Source: Escherichia coli
GTDB taxonomy: Bacteria; Pseudomonadota; Gammaproteobacteria; Enterobacterales; Enterobacteriaceae
Direction: 5' to 3' (one strand)
DNA length: 64,000 bases
Assembly: GCF_048403405.1 (NCBI RefSeq)
Contig: NZ_CP183129.1
The position numbers and the translations under genes are program-made. Shown one piece after another: positions 1,405-27,789 of this stretch; the stretch's first letter is position 1, and every line of letters begins with the position of its first letter. Under the pieces are notes generated by a model, which was not told the origin of the DNA, ran no database searches, and worked only from the letters and a program-made list of their open reading frames with translations.

Positions 1405-3339
1405 ATGTTTCAGGACAACCCGCTGCTAGCGCAGCTTAAACAGCAACTGCATTCCCAGACGCCACGCGCTGAAGGGGTGGTAAAAGCCACAGAAAAAGGC
1501 TTTGGCTTCCTGGAAGTCGACGCGCAAAAAAGTTATTTCATTCCGCCGCCGCAGATGAAAAAAGTCATGCATGGCGACCGAATTATCGCGGTGATCCACA
1601 GTGAAAAAGAACGTGAATCCGCAGAGCCAGAAGAACTGGTTGAACCGTTCCTGACTCGTTTCGTGGGTAAAGTTCAGGGCAAAAATGACCGTCTGGCCAT
1701 CGTTCCTGATCATCCACTCTTAAAAGACGCCATTCCTTGCCGCGCAGCCCGTGGCCTGAACCACGAGTTTAAAGAAGGCGACTGGGCGGTTGCCGAAATG
1801 CGCCGTCATCCGCTGAAAGGCGATCGTTCTTTCTATGCTGAACTGACACAATACATCACTTTTGGTGACGACCACTTTGTACCGTGGTGGGTTACACTTG
1901 CGCGCCATAATCTGGAAAAAGAAGCACCAGACGGCGTCGCTACCGAAATGCTCGATGAAGGTCTGGTTCGTGAAGATCTGACCGCGCTGGATTTTGTCAC
2001 CATCGACAGTGCCAGCACAGAAGATATGGATGACGCCCTTTTCGCTAAGGCGTTGCCGGATGACAAACTTCAGCTGATTGTGGCGATTGCCGATCCAACC
2101 GCGTGGATTGCAGAAGGCAGCAAGCTGGACAAAGCCGCGAAAATTCGCGCATTCACCAACTATCTGCCTGGCTTCAACATCCCTATGCTGCCTCGCGAGC
2201 TTTCTGACGATCTCTGCTCACTGCGCGCCAATGAAGTCCGCCCGGTACTGGCATGCCGCATGACGCTCTCCGCTGATGGCACCATTGAAGATAATATCGA
2301 ATTCTTTGCCGCCACCATCGAATCCAAAGCGAAGCTGGTGTATGACCAGGTTTCTGACTGGCTGGAAAATACCGGTGACTGGCAGCCTGAAAGTGAAGCA
2401 ATTGCCGAACAAGTCCGTTTGTTAGCGCAAATTTGCCAACGCCGCGGCGAGTGGCGTCATAACCACGCACTGGTGTTTAAAGATCGCCCGGATTACCGCT
2501 TTATTCTCGGTGAAAAAGGTGAAGTGCTGGATATCGTCGCCGAGCCCCGTCGCATTGCCAACCGTATCGTCGAAGAAGCGATGATTGCCGCTAACATTTG
2601 TGCGGCCCGCGTACTGCGCGATAAGCTCGGTTTTGGCATCTATAACGTGCATATGGGCTTTGATCCGGCAAATGCCGACGCGCTGGCAGCGTTGCTGAAA
2701 ACGCACGGTCTGCATGTCGATGCCGAAGAAGTGCTCACGCTGGACGGTTTCTGCAAACTGCGTCGTGAACTGGACGCGCAACCAACTGGTTTCCTCGACA
2801 GCCGCATTCGTCGCTTCCAGTCATTTGCTGAAATTAGCACTGAACCCGGTCCTCACTTTGGCCTCGGTCTGGAAGCATACGCCACCTGGACTTCGCCGAT
2901 CCGTAAATATGGCGACATGATCAACCACCGTCTGCTGAAAGCGGTTATCAAAGGCGAAACTGCGACGCGTCCGCAGGATGAAATCACTGTCCAAATGGCC
3001 GAGCGTCGCCGTCTCAACCGAATGGCAGAACGTGATGTTGGCGACTGGTTATACGCACGCTTCCTGAAAGACAAAGCCGGGACTGACACCCGTTTCGCGG
3101 CGGAAATTGTCGATATCAGCCGTGGCGGCATGCGTGTGCGTTTGGTTGATAACGGCGCTATTGCCTTTATTCCGGCACCTTTCTTACACGCTGTGCGCGA
3201 TGAACTGGTTTGCAGCCAGGAAAACGGCACTGTACAAATTAAAGGTGAAACGGCTTACAAAGTGACTGACGTTATTGACGTCACCATTGCCGAAGTCCGC
3301 ATGGAAACCCGCAGCATTATTGCGCGCCCGGTCGCGTAA
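1405..3339 (+). CDS. rnb: exoribonuclease II (RNase II)
   Basis: 644-aa ORF, N-terminus [15 protein letters not shown] and RNB-domain sequence; conserved neighbourhood. Confidence 0.95.
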
Positions 3340-3348
3340 TCTCCTTTC

Positions 3349-3382
3349 ACGGCCCATTCCTCATGAATGGGCCATTTATTTC
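3349..3382 (+). terminator. rho-independent terminator downstream of rnb
   Basis: GC hairpin ggcccattc/aatgggcc followed by T-rich tract directly after rnb stop. Confidence 0.55.
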
Positions 3383-3573
3383 CCCGCTCCACCTTCGTCA
3401 TATCCCGGCAGATTTTTAACTGACTTTCGTTTGAAAACTGGCGTTTTTCCAAAACTGGATTACAAATAAATATATAAAAAAAACAATGCGTTTAGCCGCC
3501 GTTAATTTCATGTAAGTCATGTTGTTCCTTTTATTTAACCGCGGACTCCGCTGTTAACCGGAGGATATGCATC

Positions 3574-5559
3574 ATGAAAACCGTTAGGGAGTCCACAACG
3601 TTGTACAACTTTCTCGGATCGCACAATCCATACTGGCGGTTAACGGAAAGCAGCGATGTTTTGCGCTTTTCTACCACCGAAACCACAGAACCTGAACGTA
3701 CGTTGCAGTTATCTGCCGAACAGGCTGCTCGCATCAGGGAAATGACAGTCATCACTTCCAGTCTGATGATGAGTCTGACCGTCGATGAAAGCGATCTTTC
3801 TGTGCATCTGGTAGGACGAAAAATCAATAAACGGGAATGGGCTGGCAACGCGTCGGCATGGCATGACACACCGGCGGTTGCTCGTGATTTATCACACGGG
3901 CTTTCCTTTGCTGAGCAGGTAGTTTCTGAAGCACATTCCGCAATAGTGATTCTCGACAGTCGGGGGAATATCCAGCGCTTCAATCGGTTATGTGAAGATT
4001 ACACAGGGTTGAAAGAACACGACGTCATTGGGCAAAGCGTGTTTAAACTGTTTATGAGCCGTCGTGAAGCTGCGGCATCCAGGCGCAATAACCGTGTATT
4101 TTTTCGAAGCGGCAATGCATATGAAGTCGAACTGTGGATACCAACACGTAAAGGCCAGCGGCTGTTTCTGTTTCGCAATAAATTTGTCCACAGCGGTAGT
4201 GGCAAAAACGAGATTTTTTTAATCTGTTCCGGCACCGACATTACCGAAGAGCGCCGCGCTCAGGAGCGACTGCGCATTCTGGCAAATACCGACAGTATCA
4301 CCGGACTGCCGAATCGTAACGCAATGCAGGAGTTAATCGATCACGCTATTAATCAGGCAGATAACAATAAAGTTGGGGTTGTGTATCTTGATTTGGATAA
4401 TTTTAAAAAGGTCAACGACGCCTATGGGCATTTGTTTGGTGACCAGCTATTACGCGACGTGTCATTGGCTATTTTAAGCTGTCTCGAACATGACCAGGTG
4501 TTGGCGCGTCCAGGTGGCGATGAGTTTCTGGTACTGGCATCCAACACCTCACAAAGCGCGCTGGAAGCAATGGCATCACGAATTTTGACCCGCTTACGGC
4601 TCCCCTTTCGCATTGGTTTAATTGAAGTTTATACCAGCTGTTCAGTAGGTATTGCACTCTCTCCCGAACATGGTTCAGACAGCACGGCTATTATTCGTCA
4701 CGCCGACACAGCAATGTACACAGCGAAGGAAGGCGGACGAGGACAATTTTGCGTTTTTACCCCAGAAATGAATCAACGGGTATTTGAATATCTCTGGCTG
4801 GATACCAACTTGCGTAAAGCACTGGAAAACGATCAGTTGGTTATTCACTATCAACCGAAAATCACCTGGCGTGGCGAAGTGCGCAGTCTGGAAGCACTAG
4901 TACGTTGGCAGTCACCTGAACGTGGGTTGATTCCACCGTTGGACTTCATTTCCTACGCCGAAGAGTCAGGGCTAATTGTGCCTTTAGGCCGTTGGGTGAT
5001 TCTCGATGTCGTACGCCAGGTGGCGAAGTGGCGGGATAAAGGTATTAACCTGCGAGTGGCGGTAAATATTTCTGCACGTCAGCTCGCCGATCAAACCATT
5101 TTCACCGCCCTGAAACAGGTTCTCCAGGAACTCAATTTTGAATACTGCCCTATAGATGTTGAACTGACAGAGAGTTGTCTGATTGAGAATGATGAACTGG
5201 CACTGTCTGTTATTCAACAATTTAGCCAACTAGGTGCGCAAGTGCATCTGGATGATTTTGGTACCGGCTACTCTTCACTTTCGCAACTGGCGCGCTTTCC
5301 GATCGATGCCATCAAACTTGACCAGGTTTTTGTTCGAGATATTCACAAACAACCTGTCTCGCAGTCACTGGTCCGGGCGATCGTCGCTGTGGCCCAGGCA
5401 TTGAATCTTCAGGTGATCGCCGAAGGTGTAGAGAGTGCAAAGGAAGATGCTTTTTTAACCAAGAACGGGATCAATGAGCGGCAAGGATTTTTGTTTGCCA
5501 AACCGATGCCCGCCGTCGCCTTCGAACGCTGGTATAAACGCTATCTGAAGCGCGCATAA
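3574..5559 (+). CDS. pdeR: c-di-GMP phosphodiesterase PdeR (YciR/Gmr), PAS-GGDEF-EAL
   Basis: 661-aa ORF with GGDEF-like and EAL regions; position between rnb and yciT. Confidence 0.9.
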   Translation: MKTVRESTTLYNFLGSHNPYWRLTESSDVLRFSTTETTEPERTLQLSAEQAARIREMTVITSSLMMSLTVDESDLSVHLVGRKINKREWAGNASAWHDTPAVARDLSHGLSFAEQVVSEAHSAIVILDSRGNIQRFNRLCEDYTGLKEHDVIGQSVFKLFMSRREAAASRRNNRVFFRSGNAYEVELWIPTRKGQRLFLFRNKFVHSGSGKNEIFLICSGTDITEERRAQERLRILANTDSITGLPNRNAMQELIDHAINQADNNKVGVVYLDLDNFKKVNDAYGHLFGDQLLRDVSLAILSCLEHDQVLARPGGDEFLVLASNTSQSALEAMASRILTRLRLPFRIGLIEVYTSCSVGIALSPEHGSDSTAIIRHADTAMYTAKEGGRGQFCVFTPEMNQRVFEYLWLDTNLRKALENDQLVIHYQPKITWRGEVRSLEALVRWQSPERGLIPPLDFISYAEESGLIVPLGRWVILDVVRQVAKWRDKGINLRVAVNISARQLADQTIFTALKQVLQELNFEYCPIDVELTESCLIENDELALSVIQQFSQLGAQVHLDDFGTGYSSLSQLARFPIDAIKLDQVFVRDIHKQPVSQSLVRAIVAVAQALNLQVIAEGVESAKEDAFLTKNGINERQGFLFAKPMPAVAFERWYKRYLKRA

Positions 5560-9762: not shown

Positions 9763-10071
9763 TTATTCCTTCGCCGCTGACGAATGCGGCGCTACAGCCA
9801 CGTCAGTCGCGGGTGAAAGCTGGTTTTCCAGTCGCTTTATTTTACGTTCAGCGCGCGCCAGGGAAACACGAACTCGCAGCCAGAACAGACCGCAAATCAG
9901 CCAACCGATAGCAAACCCCGCAGCAAACAATACCGCCAGCAATGTGGAAATACGGTACTCCCCTTGCGCTAACAGATAATTAAACGTCACCTGTTGATCG
10001 TTCTGCGCACCTAACGTGACCGAAATCACGAAGATCGCTAACACCAGTAAGAAAATGAGTAAATATTTCAC
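9763..10071 (-). CDS. lapA: LPS assembly protein LapA (YciS)
   Basis: 102-aa membrane protein immediately upstream of lapB. Confidence 0.85.
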   Translation of the reverse strand: MKYLLIFLLVLAIFVISVTLGAQNDQQVTFNYLLAQGEYRISTLLAVLFAAGFAIGWLICGLFWLRVRVSLARAERKIKRLENQLSPATDVAVAPHSSAAKE

Positions 10072-10219
10072 ATTACTTCCCGTTATGTGGTTAGAGCGAA
10101 TAAATTATGGTCAACTTACCGCAATAGCCCTTTAAAGTACCATTTTCGCGCCGTCTGCGAAATGGCATCCACGCGCATTGTTGATGATTTAAGGGCTAAA
10201 TTCGGAAAATCAACCAGCG

Positions 10220-10984
10220 TTAACTTTCTTGTTCTCGTTGTGCAATTTCGCGATTTTCTTCCGCAGGTGGTGTTAATGGCCCACAAATTCGTTGCGCAAG
10301 CCACGTTGCCACCGCCACCAGCGCCCACGAAATCAACGTAGCTACCACCAGATCGCGTGGCCAATGCATCCCGAGCAGCAGGCGGCTTCCCATGACTCCC
10401 GTTGCCCAGACCAACAAGATAGCAATGGTTAACGTTCGCCGACGCGGCCATAGCAAACCAACGGCCAGCAGCGCCCAACTGGCAGCAAACATCGTGTGAC
10501 CGGAAGGAAAGGCAAACCCCGTCTCTTTCTGCCAGTGTGAACGCAAATATTGTGGGATATTTTTCTCTTCAGCCAACTGTTCTTTCACTAGATTTCCGCG
10601 TTCTGCTCGCTTTAAAGTGTAGAACTCATCAACCGGAATATGATGTGTTTTTTCCAGCCAGATAACAAAAGGTCGTGGTTCCTGGACTTTGTCTTTGATC
10701 CAGGATTTAACGCCTTGTCCCACAAGAATTGCCGCCGCCAGAATGGCAAATAACATAATGGCAGCCTTAATGCGAAAACGCAGACACCAGAGAAACCAAC
10801 CGAATAAAATCAAATGTGTAATGACGCCCCAGGGCTGGGTAACAGTTTCAGTAACCCAAAAAGCCGCTTTTAGTAGCCAACTTTGTTCTCCAGGTTGCCA
10901 ACGCCAGCCAGAAATCCATACGGCTACTGGCATAACAAGCAATAGTGCAGCTCCCACTGCGGTACGTCTGGCAATCGAACGCAT
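10220..10984 (-). CDS. pgpB: phosphatidylglycerophosphatase B (PAP2 family)
   Basis: 254-aa polytopic membrane ORF with PAP2 motifs (PSGH...). Confidence 0.9.
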   Translation of the reverse strand: MRSIARRTAVGAALLLVMPVAVWISGWRWQPGEQSWLLKAAFWVTETVTQPWGVITHLILFGWFLWCLRFRIKAAIMLFAILAAAILVGQGVKSWIKDKVQEPRPFVIWLEKTHHIPVDEFYTLKRAERGNLVKEQLAEEKNIPQYLRSHWQKETGFAFPSGHTMFAASWALLAVGLLWPRRRTLTIAILLVWATGVMGSRLLLGMHWPRDLVVATLISWALVAVATWLAQRICGPLTPPAEENREIAQREQES

Positions 10985-22670: not shown

Positions 22671-23257
22671 GTGATGAACGCTACCAACAGCGTCAGCAGC
22701 GAGTGAAAGAAAAAGTCGATGCTCGTGTGGCCCAGGCCCAGGATGAACGCGGTATTATCATCGTTTTTACCGGCAATGGAAAAGGCAAAACCACCGCGGC
22801 ATTTGGTACGGCAACTCGTGCAGTAGGCCATGGCAAAAAAGTGGGTATCGTGCAGTTTATTAAAGGCACCTGGCCTAATGGCGAGCGCAATCTACTGGAG
22901 CCACATGGCGTTGAGTTTCAGGTGATGGCAACGGGCTTTACCTGGGATACACAAAATCGCGAATCTGATACCGCGGCCTGCCGTGAAGTCTGGCAACATG
23001 CCAAACGAATGCTGGCCGATCCTTCACTGGATATGGTTTTGCTCGATGAGCTGACTTATATGGTGGCGTATGATTATTTGCCACTGGAAGAAGTGGTGAA
23101 GGCGTTAAATGAACGTCCACATCAGCAAACCGTCATTATTACGGGTCGTGGTTGTCATCGGGATATACTTGAACTGGCGGATACGGTAAGTGAATTACGC
23201 CCCGTGAAACATGCGTTTGATGCCGGTGTAAAAGCGCAGATAGGGATTGACTACTAA
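22667..23257 (+). CDS. btuR: cob(I)yrinic acid a,c-diamide adenosyltransferase (BtuR/CobO)
   Basis: 196-aa ORF with P-loop GNGKGKTTAAFG; start overlaps yciK stop. Confidence 0.9.
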   Translation: MSDERYQQRQQRVKEKVDARVAQAQDERGIIIVFTGNGKGKTTAAFGTATRAVGHGKKVGIVQFIKGTWPNGERNLLEPHGVEFQVMATGFTWDTQNRESDTAACREVWQHAKRMLADPSLDMVLLDELTYMVAYDYLPLEEVVKALNERPHQQTVIITGRGCHRDILELADTVSELRPVKHAFDAGVKAQIGIDY

Positions 23258-23260
23258 GTG

Positions 23261-23296
23261 AAAGCACCTCAAAAGAAGCCTCTTGAGGTGCTTTAA
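23261..23296. terminator. bidirectional terminator after btuR
   Basis: hairpin aagcacctcaa/ttgaggtgctt. Confidence 0.55.
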
Positions 23297-23308
23297 TCAT
23301 GATTATAT

Positions 23309-23617
23309 TCAAGCGGCAATAGCGAAATTCAGAATACGTGTAATCTCATTCAAATGTCCCGGATATGCTTCATGATTCTCAGCGTCAACATCTTCAATAA
23401 ATAATATCAGTTCAGTAATTAACGCATTAGCATCGTCATAATTTATCCCGGCTAACTCTGGCGAAGTTTCAGTACCATAGTTAATCGTCAGGTTGTTCAT
23501 AACTGTGAGGATATGGATAAAATATTTATGACAAACATTACATGTGGTTTTATTACCCAAAGTATTATACAGCATATCAAGTAATGCCAATATTCTACGG
23601 TTTTGCACATCGTTCAT
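23309..23617 (-). CDS. hypothetical small acidic protein (102 aa), second gene of AT-rich islet
   Basis: ORF in AT-rich DNA directly downstream of lipoprotein gene; no recognisable family. Confidence 0.5.
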   Translation of the reverse strand: MNDVQNRRILALLDMLYNTLGNKTTCNVCHKYFIHILTVMNNLTINYGTETSPELAGINYDDANALITELILFIEDVDAENHEAYPGHLNEITRILNFAIAA

Positions 23618-23627
23618 AAAAAGCCTC

Positions 23628-24629
23628 CTATAACATTATTCCGCTGGCAATAAGTAATTTTGCCAGCCCCTCAGACGCCTTTAACCCACTAATGACCTGT
23701 GCGCGTAATATTTCATTTAATCTTTTTTGTTCAGCTGCCGTGCGTGTTTTATTAACGTATAAGCTTTTTAGATAATCACCCTTATCTATAAAGGCATTTA
23801 AAGCCTCAATCGCAGGCATGGCAGGTGCCGATGCCTGTAGTCTGGTTTCATTCACATTGATTACTGAACTTAGAAACTCCTTCCTGTTTTTCAGAGTGTT
23901 AAACTCTGTATTCTTAGAGTTTTTAGATGCTGTATTATAATAAAACATATTATCATGCACATTCGCAAAGGTATAATTTTCAATCTTATTGCTTTTTGTA
24001 TAAATATCATTGCGCAAAACCGCCATGTTCTTTATAAGTCTTACCCAGTTTTCATCTGCCGTTTTGCCTATTTTTCCAGAATTGACTTTAATTATATATA
24101 ACTCATTGAAATAATTTACCAAATCTTTAACCGCTGCTGCAGATTGAGCTAAATCTTTGCTATGTGAAACACCAAGTAGTGTTTGTGCGTTGTTTGCGTG
24201 ATCCAGAGCCTGTTTAAGTAATGCCACTTGCTGACTTTCCGTAGTTGCCATATCCTTTGTCAGAAGTTCCACATAAGCGCTCATGCTATTAATGACTTCC
24301 ATTGAAGCCAGTAATTTTTCTTTCTCGAAAGGGACTAATTGTACTTGTTTTGTATTTGGCCCTGAACGCTGGCATAATTTTCCGCCATTCCCATCACCGC
24401 CTATATCAATGGTATAATCAGGTCGCAATGCACAATCCGGATTAGTCGCGTAGAAATTAACAAGGAAGTTTTCACGAGAAGCATAGTATTGTTTAAAGAA
24501 ACTTGCATTCGCCGCTACTGCTTTGTTACCCGCAGTAATAACAGTTTCAGCTTGTTCGTTTTTCAATGCTTCAGTTGCACAACCTGAAAGCATTAACAGC
24601 GATAGAAATATTCCACTATATCTAATCAT
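23628..24629 (-). CDS. hypothetical lipoprotein (333 aa), AT-rich islet
   Basis: signal peptide with lipobox LSGC (MIRYSGIFLSLLMLSGC), strong SD GAGGTGGG upstream, AT-rich codon usage. Confidence 0.7.
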   Translation of the reverse strand: MIRYSGIFLSLLMLSGCATEALKNEQAETVITAGNKAVAANASFFKQYYASRENFLVNFYATNPDCALRPDYTIDIGGDGNGGKLCQRSGPNTKQVQLVPFEKEKLLASMEVINSMSAYVELLTKDMATTESQQVALLKQALDHANNAQTLLGVSHSKDLAQSAAAVKDLVNYFNELYIIKVNSGKIGKTADENWVRLIKNMAVLRNDIYTKSNKIENYTFANVHDNMFYYNTASKNSKNTEFNTLKNRKEFLSSVINVNETRLQASAPAMPAIEALNAFIDKGDYLKSLYVNKTRTAAEQKRLNEILRAQVISGLKASEGLAKLLIASGIML

Positions 24630-24751
24630 AACCCACCTCTTGACGTTGAGTTTATCTCAGATAATTAAATAGTAATGTGGCTATTTCCGGGTATTATTCA
24701 TAAGCAAGTATGAAATTAAATTAAAATACTGCGACTATTTATCATGCTTCA

Positions 24752-24779
24752 AATGAAGAAAAGGCCCCGCAGGGCCTTT
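24752..24779 (-). terminator. rho-independent terminator of rluB
   Basis: hairpin aaggccccgcaggggcctt with U tract on minus strand. Confidence 0.6.
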
Positions 24780-24798
24780 ATTTTATACTTATCTTAAA

Positions 24799-25884: not shown

Positions 25885-27789
25885 TTACCAGCCACCGCCG
25901 CCTCCGCCACCTGCACCGCCACCAGCACCACCACCGGAATAGCTACGCCCCAACAAACTGGTATAGGCCCCGCAACTCAGGTGCGTCTGTAATGAGAATA
26001 AAACGCCACTACGGGCAATTTCCGGGGCGCGAACAGCCGCTGTGAGTGATGGGGTGATACGTGCTGCCCATTCTCTGCCAAGGTTTGCCGAGACCGCCCA
26101 ACCTAACAACGCGTAATCCAGTTTCCGTGTTTCCCCTTTCCGCCGCCGCCCACTGTGTGTTGCTGCCTCTTTACGCGCAAGATAGTTAACGATAGCTTCA
26201 CCGTGGACATAACGTTGCTGCCCAGTTTGGGTAAACTTTGGCAGAAAAATATACCCCAAGCCAGTGAGATAACCGGTCAGGACAACAGCGCTAAAATAAC
26301 CCGCTGGCATATACCAGTAAAAGAATACATCTCCGACATTGATATAGAGAGAATAAAAGGCCACGCCTGAACAAATCAGCGGTAAAAACAAAGTGATGAT
26401 TACACGATTAACGCAAGGCTTGTCATCATCGCGGGCAAACACAAGCTCAAGGGAACAAAATAAAAAAGGAAGAAGCCAGCAGATCATAATAAACATATCG
26501 CCCACCAGACTCATTCCTGCCCAGCCTACGGGACTCAGGTTACCGTAGAGAATGACCGCTAATATCGCCATTCCCCCCCATTGCAAAAACGCATCAGGTC
26601 GGTAAAACGAAGACTTTTTACGCGGCAGATAAAATTTCTGCATCCGTAAAAATGCCCTGCGTAAGACTCTGTTGCGTCTCCCCGTAAGAACGACCTTATC
26701 GCCTTTACGAAATAACGCTTCCAGTAATAACTGCTCTGCGGGCAGTAATACCGCATTATTTCTGGTCGCGCCTTCATTAACACGAATCAGGATTTGCTGG
26801 TTCTTATCATACTGATCTTCCAGATGAATTTTGCCTTTCACAATCAGATTTACGATATCGGCACAAAAACCTTTATCGTCGTAAACCAGCTTCGCATCGA
26901 GACGTAACATGCCGGGCGTGTAATCTGGCGGAATGACATCGGTTTCAATCACATCTACCGGCGTAAATTGCGGCCTGCGCTTCCAGAGATATAACCATCC
27001 ACAAACCAGGAATAGACACGGAAACCAAATTAACAACGATGACGTGGAGGGTAAAAGAAGATGGCTGAAAATATTCGTCGTTTGTGGAGCCGGGGCATTG
27101 CTAAGTAAAGCGTGAGGCCAGCGGTAGAGTACCGTGAAATCTTCACGATAAAACGGATCGCGGGATTCAATTCTTCCGTCCTCAAGGATGCGGCCATTTC
27201 GATATGTGTCGCCCTCTTCTCCAGTAAAGAGATCGATTTCGCTAAATGGATTACCCGCGATATCAGGGAACTTGAGTGAAAATCGGGTCTTATAGATTTC
27301 AAACGGCCAGTGGTTACCGGTCACGTTCCAGATTAACAGATCTGAATCTCCCTCACGCAGGAAAGCATTTTTAACCTGATAATGAATTTGATAATGATAG
27401 TCGCCTTGAGGCAAGAAACGTTGTTTATCGCCCACGACGATACTCATTAAACCGATATGCCAGTCAAGATGCCAGGGTTCAGGAACACCATCACGGGTGA
27501 CGCCAACAATATGATAGTTCAGCAGTGCAGCGTCCCCATCAGGCTGCATCCAGAGTCGTGGTAAATCACGATAAAATCCGTGCTTAATCTGCTGATTTCG
27601 CGCCTGAAAATGAATATTTTCTTTGATGTCGAGCCCCCCATCCGGTTGCAGAGTGGCTTCAACATCAAAGAGCGAGATCCCTTCTTCATAAAAAGGGATC
27701 TCCGTGTTTTTCGGATAACTCAACGAAGAGAAAAAAGCCCAACTATCAACAGCAAAATGCAGCGATATATCCCTGCCATAGTCTTCCAT
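25885..27789 (-). CDS. yciQ: DUF2207-family membrane protein YciQ with C-terminal poly-Gly tail
   Basis: 634-aa ORF, several TM segments, ends GGGAGGGAGGGGGGGW. Confidence 0.8.
   Translation of the reverse strand: MEDYGRDISLHFAVDSWAFFSSLSYPKNTEIPFYEEGISLFDVEATLQPDGGLDIKENIHFQARNQQIKHGFYRDLPRLWMQPDGDAALLNYHIVGVTRDGVPEPWHLDWHIGLMSIVVGDKQRFLPQGDYHYQIHYQVKNAFLREGDSDLLIWNVTGNHWPFEIYKTRFSLKFPDIAGNPFSEIDLFTGEEGDTYRNGRILEDGRIESRDPFYREDFTVLYRWPHALLSNAPAPQTTNIFSHLLLPSTSSLLIWFPCLFLVCGWLYLWKRRPQFTPVDVIETDVIPPDYTPGMLRLDAKLVYDDKGFCADIVNLIVKGKIHLEDQYDKNQQILIRVNEGATRNNAVLLPAEQLLLEALFRKGDKVVLTGRRNRVLRRAFLRMQKFYLPRKKSSFYRPDAFLQWGGMAILAVILYGNLSPVGWAGMSLVGDMFIMICWLLPFLFCSLELVFARDDDKPCVNRVIITLFLPLICSGVAFYSLYINVGDVFFYWYMPAGYFSAVVLTGYLTGLGYIFLPKFTQTGQQRYVHGEAIVNYLARKEAATHSGRRRKGETRKLDYALLGWAVSANLGREWAARITPSLTAAVRAPEIARSGVLFSLQTHLSCGAYTSLLGRSYSGGGAGGGAGGGGGGGW

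Follow-up and report, generated by a model that had tools for sequence, protein, structure and literature searches.

Entry-blocking lipoproteins are known from phage T5 (Llp), from phages phi80 and N15 (Cor), from Streptococcus phage TP-J34 (Ltp) and from the F plasmid (TraT). Nuclease colicins with their Im proteins and the SitA/SitI lipoprotein toxins of Myxococcus follow another plan, in which an exported toxin is accompanied by a small cytoplasmic immunity protein. Small helical proteins also serve as the four-helix-bundle executioners of the MLKL, HeLo and plant CC-NLR type and as the flagellar chaperones FliS and FliT, which are small acidic helical helpers. Here we describe a two-gene islet of Escherichia coli, contained in a 64,000-nucleotide stretch of contig NZ_CP183129.1 (assembly GCF_048403405.1; hereafter the window), that has points in common with the first two of these groups. 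The islet spans 1.54 kb from the btuR stop to the rluB stop (positions 23258–24798) and encodes a lipoprotein of 333 residues followed by an acidic partner of 102 residues. To judge by sequence comparison, it is a functional two-gene operon that belongs to a rare family and is under purifying selection, and both the protein family and its gene-pair architecture are previously undescribed.

A sequence-only reading of the window had proposed that about 1.5 kb of AT-rich DNA, bounded by hairpin terminators, parts two genes that are near neighbors in K-12, and every element of that description was confirmed. The GC content of the islet is 36.5% (0.32 at third codon positions, GC3), as against 51.3% for the whole window and 50–54% (GC3 0.46–0.54) for the genes that flank it. 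In K-12 MG1655, rluB and btuR are separated by 39 bp carrying a different hairpin, from which it follows that the entire spacer has been replaced in islet-bearing strains. The upstream boundary is the hairpin AAAGGCCCCGCAGGGCCTTT (24760..24779; −14.4 kcal/mol, z −3.1), which sits just downstream of rluB as its terminator and is also kept in the Citrobacter loci that bear the islet. At the downstream boundary, a bidirectional hairpin identified from its folding energy (23261..23294; −19.3 kcal/mol with z −4.9 on the plus strand, −22.3 kcal/mol with z −5.9 on the minus strand) is a terminator common to the convergent btuR gene and islet operon. Neither hairpin is assigned to a strand, and no dinucleotide-shuffled sequence folded as stably as either of them. 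A search of the islet against Rfam gave no match. Its coding content is limited to two open reading frames (ORFs), both on the minus strand. The lipoprotein gene (24629..23628), whose call draws on its lipobox, the family alignment and a structure model, ends 10 nt before the partner gene (23617..23309), which was called as an ORF and likewise modeled. A strong Shine–Dalgarno (SD) sequence precedes each of them, AGAGGTGGG at 24640–24632 for the first and AGGAGG for the second. These sizes, spacings and ribosome-binding sites, together with the LSGC lipobox, the two mature cysteines and the acidic second product described below, agree with what had been read from the letters.

Its sequence and predicted structure indicate that the first gene product is an exported, lipid-anchored, all-α protein. 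The N-terminus, MIRYSGIFLSLLMLSGC, contains the lipobox L-S-G-C, which fits the pattern [LVI][ASTVI][GAS]C, and Cys17 is the predicted lipidated residue; this cysteine is invariant in 44 of 44 aligned family members and stands in a lipobox-like context. The residue at position +2 is alanine (CATE). Aspartate at this position is avoided in outer-membrane-sorted lipoproteins of E. coli under the Lol rule, and the protein is thus predicted to reach the outer membrane. Of the tests of family membership applied, only that for bacterial lipoproteins was positive. Besides Cys17, the only invariant residues in the 44-sequence alignment are Cys66, Cys86 and Tyr119, and the alignment contains no conserved catalytic motif, no HxxE motif and no other ligand motif. 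An AlphaFold model built from these 44 sequences has a predicted local distance difference test score (pLDDT) of 70.8 and a predicted template-modeling (TM) score of 0.67. It shows eight long helices in a bundle, with a small β-hairpin (strands 73–77 and 93–97) between helices 1 and 2 and low confidence for the last 20 residues. Conservation is concentrated in residues 17–62, 103–153 and 298–333, corresponding to helix 1, helices 2–3 and the C-terminal helix. Residues 71–100, the hairpin region, vary and carry insertions and deletions, and residues 181–240, in helix 5, also vary. Cys66 and Cys86 of the mature protein lie on either side of strand 73–77 in the model; an invariant cysteine pair flanking a variable hairpin implies folding in an oxidizing compartment.

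The second gene product is modeled, with high confidence (pLDDT 93), as a bundle of four helices, with helices 2 and 3 separated by a short additional one. With an isoelectric point of 4.62 and no signal peptide, it is predicted to be a small acidic cytoplasmic protein. In Escherichia and Citrobacter, the partner has four invariant residues, Cys26, Cys29, His30 and His88, and this CxxCH motif with a distal histidine could form a metal site in these two genera. The Buttiauxella partner has two cysteines with other spacing, and remoter partners have one cysteine only. We therefore rejected a C26/C29/H30/H88 zinc site as a feature of the family, its residues being invariant only in Escherichia and Citrobacter. 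A twin-arginine signal or a lipobox, suggested by an N-terminal RR and by Cys26, was rejected as well; distant partners lack the RR, and the segment concerned forms a confidently modeled helix of the bundle.

Close relatives of the lipoprotein are few. A word-indexed search of 5.8 billion proteins returned no more than 26 clusters, which were confined to Escherichia, E. albertii and Citrobacter, and among 100,044 species representatives the close family occurs only in E. whittamii and E. albertii. A profile search of 1.84 billion representatives gave 56 matches, about 30 of them full-length proteins of 324–357 residues with 15–25% identity, from Buttiauxella, Raoultella/Klebsiella/Rahnella, Pantoea, Methylomonas, Chlorobiaceae and high-GC metagenomic organisms. 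The contexts that we read comprise E. coli alleles A, B and C, three Citrobacter loci, Buttiauxella, Klebsiella/Raoultella, Methylomonas, Chlorobiaceae, Pantoea and three metagenomic lineages. In 13 of 13 independent contexts, the lipoprotein gene is followed by an ORF of 96–108 codons whose product has no Pfam match, at a spacing of 3–45 nt or with a 4-nt overlap, and the two genes therefore form a conserved module. A Pseudomonas copy was found separately, through its partner, and the gene upstream of that partner encodes a 347-residue protein that also has no Pfam match. The suggestion that lipoprotein and small protein act as a pair is thus supported by co-occurrence in one direction and by the Pseudomonas partner in the other. 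The Buttiauxella lipoprotein is clearly homologous to that of E. coli (hhalign probability 99.5%, E = 8e-23), and the partners of these species also align (87%, E = 4e-6). Homology between the partners of the two distant groups receives weak support (E = 2e-4). What identifies the partner throughout the family is its position, its size and its helical character, not proven homology.

No third gene is common to the neighborhoods of the distant members. Methylomonas and Chlorobiaceae each have an extra gene directly upstream of the pair, encoding a 413-residue unknown protein in one and a 348-residue TIG/IPT-domain protein in the other. Both proteins contain a hydrophobic segment, and their mutual similarity is weak and local (E = 0.15); a third component in these lineages is possible. 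In one metagenomic relative (1585–2865), the end of the partner gene is overlapped by a gene whose product, at least 427 residues long, has a hydrophobic stretch and a GxSxG-like motif (VSHSLGT), which suggests, from the motif, that a hydrolase component has been added in that lineage.

Neither protein had seemed to belong to a recognized family, and extensive searching bears this out. The lipoprotein has no Pfam match even at E ≤ 10, and the partner has only a chance match to zf-FCS (E = 0.14) and none to the Colicin_Pyocin immunity family (PF01320). NCBIfam matches neither protein. In PADLOC-DB 2.0, which we take to include the PD-T4, PD-T7 and PD-Lambda systems, the window pair has no match at E ≤ 1, and ten distant lipoproteins with ten partners gave only chance-level matches (E ≥ 0.003). 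All matches in PHROGs have E ≥ 0.019, and three family profiles found nothing significant among the sequences of the Protein Data Bank (PDB). Public records label both proteins ‘hypothetical’ or ‘lipoprotein’ throughout, and literature searches by protein accession, gene neighbors and DUF3829/YiiG found no paper on the locus. Fold searches with both models returned generic matches only, and neither protein falls into a described family. Foldseek aligned the lipoprotein model (pLDDT 71) with AlphaFold database models labeled DUF3829, which rank with its best structural neighbors (TM-score 0.75, E = 1e-10); DUF3829 has no solved structure and is itself uncharacterized. None of the 44 family members matches PF12889 (at E ≤ 0.1) or Peptidase_M75, and an hhalign comparison of the family with K-12 YiiG gave 4.5% probability, with the alignment confined to the signal peptide. 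Membership in DUF3829 was therefore rejected at the sequence level. Matches of the lipoprotein to imelysin-like proteins and four-helix-bundle (4HB) sensors are no better than those to designed helix bundles. The four-helix matches of the partner to MLKL/HeLo-type domains are likewise equaled by de novo designed helical bundles, and the likeness may reflect generic four-helix geometry only.

A census of 5426 complete E. coli genomes shows that the islet is an accessory insertion relative to K-12, as had been supposed, and no part of the conserved core. The contiguous, empty K-12-type site is found in 4183 genomes and the islet in 1237 (23%), so that 77% of complete E. coli genomes lack this low-GC segment; no other cargo occupies the rluB–btuR site in the census. 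Three alleles account for the islet-bearing strains. Allele B, with products of 340 and 102 residues, is present in 776 genomes, including sequence type (ST) 131 strain JJ1886 and ST648; allele A, the type in the window, in 424; and allele C in about 37, including an O166:H15 strain. A few copies carry insertions of the insertion sequence (IS) IS1 or IS1-mediated deletions. In NZ_CP029420.1, for example, IS1 lies inside an otherwise identical allele-B islet, and in NZ_CM192149.1 the islet has apparently been replaced by IS1, with only its two ends matching.

The alleles differ deeply. The lipoproteins of A, B and C are 65–67% identical in pairwise comparison, and the A and B partners are 74% identical. 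Along an alignment of the window with an ST131 genome, identity falls from a background of 96–100% to 87–93% in the 3′ half of btuR and to 51–77% in the islet. It returns to 94–97% at codon 72 of the lipoprotein gene, where the breakpoint is sharp. Synonymous divergence (dS) between A and B is about 1–1.7, and thus saturated, in the islet, compared with 0.07–0.09 in rluB and yciK and 0.41 in btuR, and the ratio of nonsynonymous to synonymous divergence (dN/dS) in the islet is 0.15–0.35. Divergence within an allele lineage is ordinary. For allele A, the comparison of E. coli with E. whittamii gives a dS of 0.19 and a dN/dS of 0.05, in keeping with a flanking dS of 0.24–0.37; allele B is common to E. 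coli and E. albertii with 86% nucleotide identity, similar to that of its flanks; and dN/dS within allele lineages is 0.05–0.26. Given this ordinary rate within lineages, we rejected the reading that these are fast-evolving genes and conclude that the alleles are old. The divergence estimates show alleles that are older than the genus, with each lineage under purifying selection. Citrobacter has two further lineages at the identical site, with lipoproteins 52–57% identical to those of E. coli and flanking proteins 88–98% identical; all Escherichia and Citrobacter copies lie between rluB and btuR. Allele C is a mosaic. Its partner is 91% A-like, whereas its lipoprotein is 67% A-like, with an A-like C-terminal end and a distinct middle. 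This combination of an A-type partner and a non-A middle speaks against a toxin/immunity specificity that is tightly matched in the variable region, and fits a partner that reads the conserved C-terminus, not the variable surface.

Two observations adjoin this history. The 3′ half of btuR (22743–23257) is unusually diverged between allele-A and allele-B strains, a pattern suggestive of linked divergence or of a recombination tract with its end inside btuR. In the E. albertii type strain NBRC 107761, the allele-B-type lipoprotein gene (2898–3916) shifts frame near codon 243, either as a pseudogene or through an error in the draft assembly; other E. albertii strains encode an intact lipoprotein of 340 residues.

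The two genes travel together. The islet contains no mobility gene, and no flanking direct repeats or terminal inverted repeats were found, an absence that rules out a transposon or miniature inverted-repeat transposable element as its origin. Presumably the islet travels by homologous recombination of its conserved flanks. In Buttiauxella agrestis, the homologous pair is a 1.7-kb AT-rich insert in the gpS–gpV interval of a P2-like prophage. This interval is the orf30 position, which together with the TO region (old, tin) and Z/fun makes up the three recognized sites of horizontally acquired cargo (‘morons’) in P2-like phages (PMC3091744, PMC6823313). The same prophage carries a second cargo gene (10026–10613, minus strand), on the opposite strand, which encodes a Peptidase_C92 domain and lies between gpI (baseplate) and gpH (tail fiber). 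Other copies of the pair adjoin a DDE transposase; VapBC, Fic and a Y1 transposase; or a colicin DNase/immunity fragment with IS3 and TacA.

The 5′ control region of the operon (24630..24759, minus strand) is conserved between alleles and, in parts, between genera. Its 130 bp are about 97% identical between alleles A and B. A 14-bp block, ATAAATAGTCGCAG (24742–24729), an imperfect palindrome, TTCATACTTGCTTATGAA (TTCATAC-N4-TCATGAA; 24714–24697), and the SD sequence have been kept in both Escherichia and Citrobacter despite diverged coding regions. We regard the palindrome as a candidate operator, and the palindrome and the 14-bp block together as candidate binding sites for some regulator. A consensus promoter scan of the minus strand of this region found nothing convincing.

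What might such a module do? The sequence-only reading had suggested a toxin/immunity, exclusion or defense function; the evolutionary signature does fit a module of the conflict type, and homology to families of these kinds is absent. The signature consists of presence and absence among strains, a single locus with three or more ancient alleles, low GC content, one copy carried as prophage cargo and, for other copies, neighbors that include IS elements, toxin–antitoxin (TA) systems and bacteriocin fragments. When several alleles and a null state have persisted for this long, it is usually frequency-dependent selection that keeps them, at surfaces exposed to phages, bacteriocins, competitors or host immunity. 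Because of the multi-allele-plus-null pattern, the prophage-cargo copy, the low GC content and the mobile and TA-rich neighborhoods, we tentatively favor a module for exclusion or recognition at the envelope, assisted by a helper in the cytoplasm. In such a module, the lipoprotein would be the working part, a blocking or recognition factor that bears specificity at the envelope and that excludes or recognizes a phage, a bacteriocin or another envelope-directed attacker. The surface for interaction could consist of the variable hairpin (71–100) and helix 5 (181–240), and the several types and the null state would be preserved by frequency-dependent selection. The partner would be no matched antidote; it could instead act on the conserved termini as a dedicated cytoplasmic helper, for example a pre-export chaperone or holdase, or an expression partner.

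Several points weigh against an exclusion or recognition module. Our searches found no sequence link and no specific fold link to any exclusion, defense, toxin or immunity family, and the lipoprotein model is of moderate confidence (pLDDT 71). To our knowledge, the described exclusion lipoproteins need no cytoplasmic partner, and a helper role is a guess, given that an outer-membrane lipoprotein can no longer meet a cytoplasmic protein once it has been exported. Homology of the partner between enteric and distant groups is not statistically demonstrable. Several relatives lie among ordinary metabolic genes. Searches of 50,697 phage genomes by tblastn and scans of IMG/VR contigs gave no match, so that the prophage link rests on one species, Buttiauxella; the one match in a plasmid collection came from an E. 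coli chromosome mislabeled as a plasmid and is the islet itself. Finally, the ancient alleles could have arisen from host-immune selection or from repeated import from other species.

The islet could instead be an envelope or niche factor outside any conflict. The lipoprotein would then be a periplasmic ligand-binding, sensing or stress protein, with a fold like that of DUF3829 and imelysin-like proteins or of 4HB sensors, its partner would be a chaperone or regulator, and the old alleles would result from host-immune or habitat selection or from imports. We consider this doubtful, with 0 of 44 members matching DUF3829 or Peptidase_M75, the YiiG alignment restricted to the signal peptide and invariant residues that amount to three cysteines and one tyrosine without an HxxE or other conserved ligand motif. 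The islet is also missing from 77% of E. coli, and a deep allelic series is unusual for a simple binding protein. Gene order and the several old types would be accounted for by an exported lipoprotein toxin with a cytoplasmic immunity protein, similar to colicin E/Im or SitA/SitI, in which specificity types would be kept by the dynamics of producer, resistant and sensitive strains. The proteins themselves make this unlikely. Neither a toxin domain nor conserved catalytic residues were found in the lipoprotein, which departs from the polymorphic-toxin layout in that both of its ends are conserved and the middle varies within one fold, leaving no swappable C-terminal domain. The partner falls outside the Pfam immunity families, outer-membrane lipoproteins of E. 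coli have no known delivery route, and allele C joins an A-type partner to a non-A middle.

A more active role for the second gene product can also be imagined. In an abortive-infection system, the partner would be a membrane-disrupting executioner of the MLKL/HeLo/CC-NLR type, restrained by a lipoprotein, or its unexported precursor, that senses the integrity of the envelope or of secretion. The four-helix resemblance that could recommend this idea is matched by designed helical bundles and is accompanied by no sequence similarity; the partner, an acidic protein, shows no obvious segment for membrane insertion, the two proteins have no transmembrane connection and PADLOC has no match, all of which leave it very unlikely. 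A broader version, still improbable in our estimation, would be an envelope-coupled immunity or self/non-self system under long-term balancing selection, with the lipoprotein as polymorphic specificity determinant and the partner as an MLKL/HeLo/CC-NLR-like or previously unseen effector. Here the effector would be released once a phage or competitor disturbs lipoprotein export or integrity. At the opposite extreme, the two ORFs could be functionless, left on acquired AT-rich DNA, silenced and drifting. The islet is indeed AT-rich, missing from most strains and annotated as hypothetical throughout, with occasional IS1 insertions and deletions and one frameshifted E. albertii copy. About 1,200 complete genomes nevertheless have both ORFs intact, with dN/dS of 0.05–0.26 within lineages, invariant cysteines and tyrosine, a pair kept across phyla, and an SD sequence and upstream region conserved between genera, and we judge a decaying remnant to be extremely improbable.

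More broadly, 23% of complete E. coli genomes, among them those of the pandemic ST131 lineage and of ST648, carry a module that is still annotated as ‘hypothetical’. The locus is common in clinically important strains, and its protein family extends to Pseudomonas, to methanotrophs and to green sulfur bacteria. Accessory pairs of orphan genes are no rarity in E. coli; this islet gives one of the clearer examples of an old polymorphism with several alleles at a fixed position on the chromosome, a pattern that is usual at loci for O-antigen, restriction specificity and bacteriocin immunity. Its function, once found, would probably reveal a new envelope-level interaction, and the empty site of K-12 and the 1.5-kb size of the module make it directly testable.

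Elsewhere in the window, yciQ (25885–27789, minus strand) encodes a YciQ (DUF2207) protein with a C-terminal glycine run, GGGAGGGAGGGGGGGW, that is specified by a G/C-rich repeat. The gene is a frameshifted pseudogene according to RefSeq in at least two islet-bearing strains (loci L002, 5480–7374, and L003, 5628–7522), and the repeat may be prone to slippage. The copy in the window is an intact ORF, of 634 codons by the start called in the ORF list.

Comparison with described systems places the islet near several of them. DUF3829/YiiG (PF12889) is likewise an all-α proteobacterial lipoprotein of about 330–350 residues, but K-12 yiiG lacks a co-oriented small partner gene downstream. Imelysin-like proteins (Peptidase_M75, EfeO/IrpA) and the 4HB sensors of TorS, NarX/PilJ and chemoreceptors are alike as periplasmic helix bundles with weak fold matches. 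They differ in size and topology, they have no sequence match to the islet family, and that family is without a conserved HxxE metal motif. The Buttiauxella pair sits at orf30 and is AT-rich, as is known cargo at that P2 site, whereas the searches showed no sequence relation to phage-protein families or phage genomes and the E. coli copy lies outside any prophage. The islet resembles colicin/Im and SitA/SitI in the order of its genes, in the small, acidic and helical protein encoded second and in its several specificity-like types of long standing. It differs from them in having no toxin domain, no C-terminal domain swapping and no known delivery, and allele C breaks the matching of the two proteins. 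Llp, Cor, Ltp and TraT resemble the islet lipoprotein as accessory, horizontally moved envelope lipoproteins, one relative of the islet being prophage cargo, and Ltp provides a precedent for an all-α exclusion lipoprotein. The islet protein has no homology to these four and is far larger than Llp, Cor and Ltp. Moreover, in contrast to all of them, it always occurs with a cytoplasmic protein and is mostly chromosomal instead of being carried by phages or plasmids.

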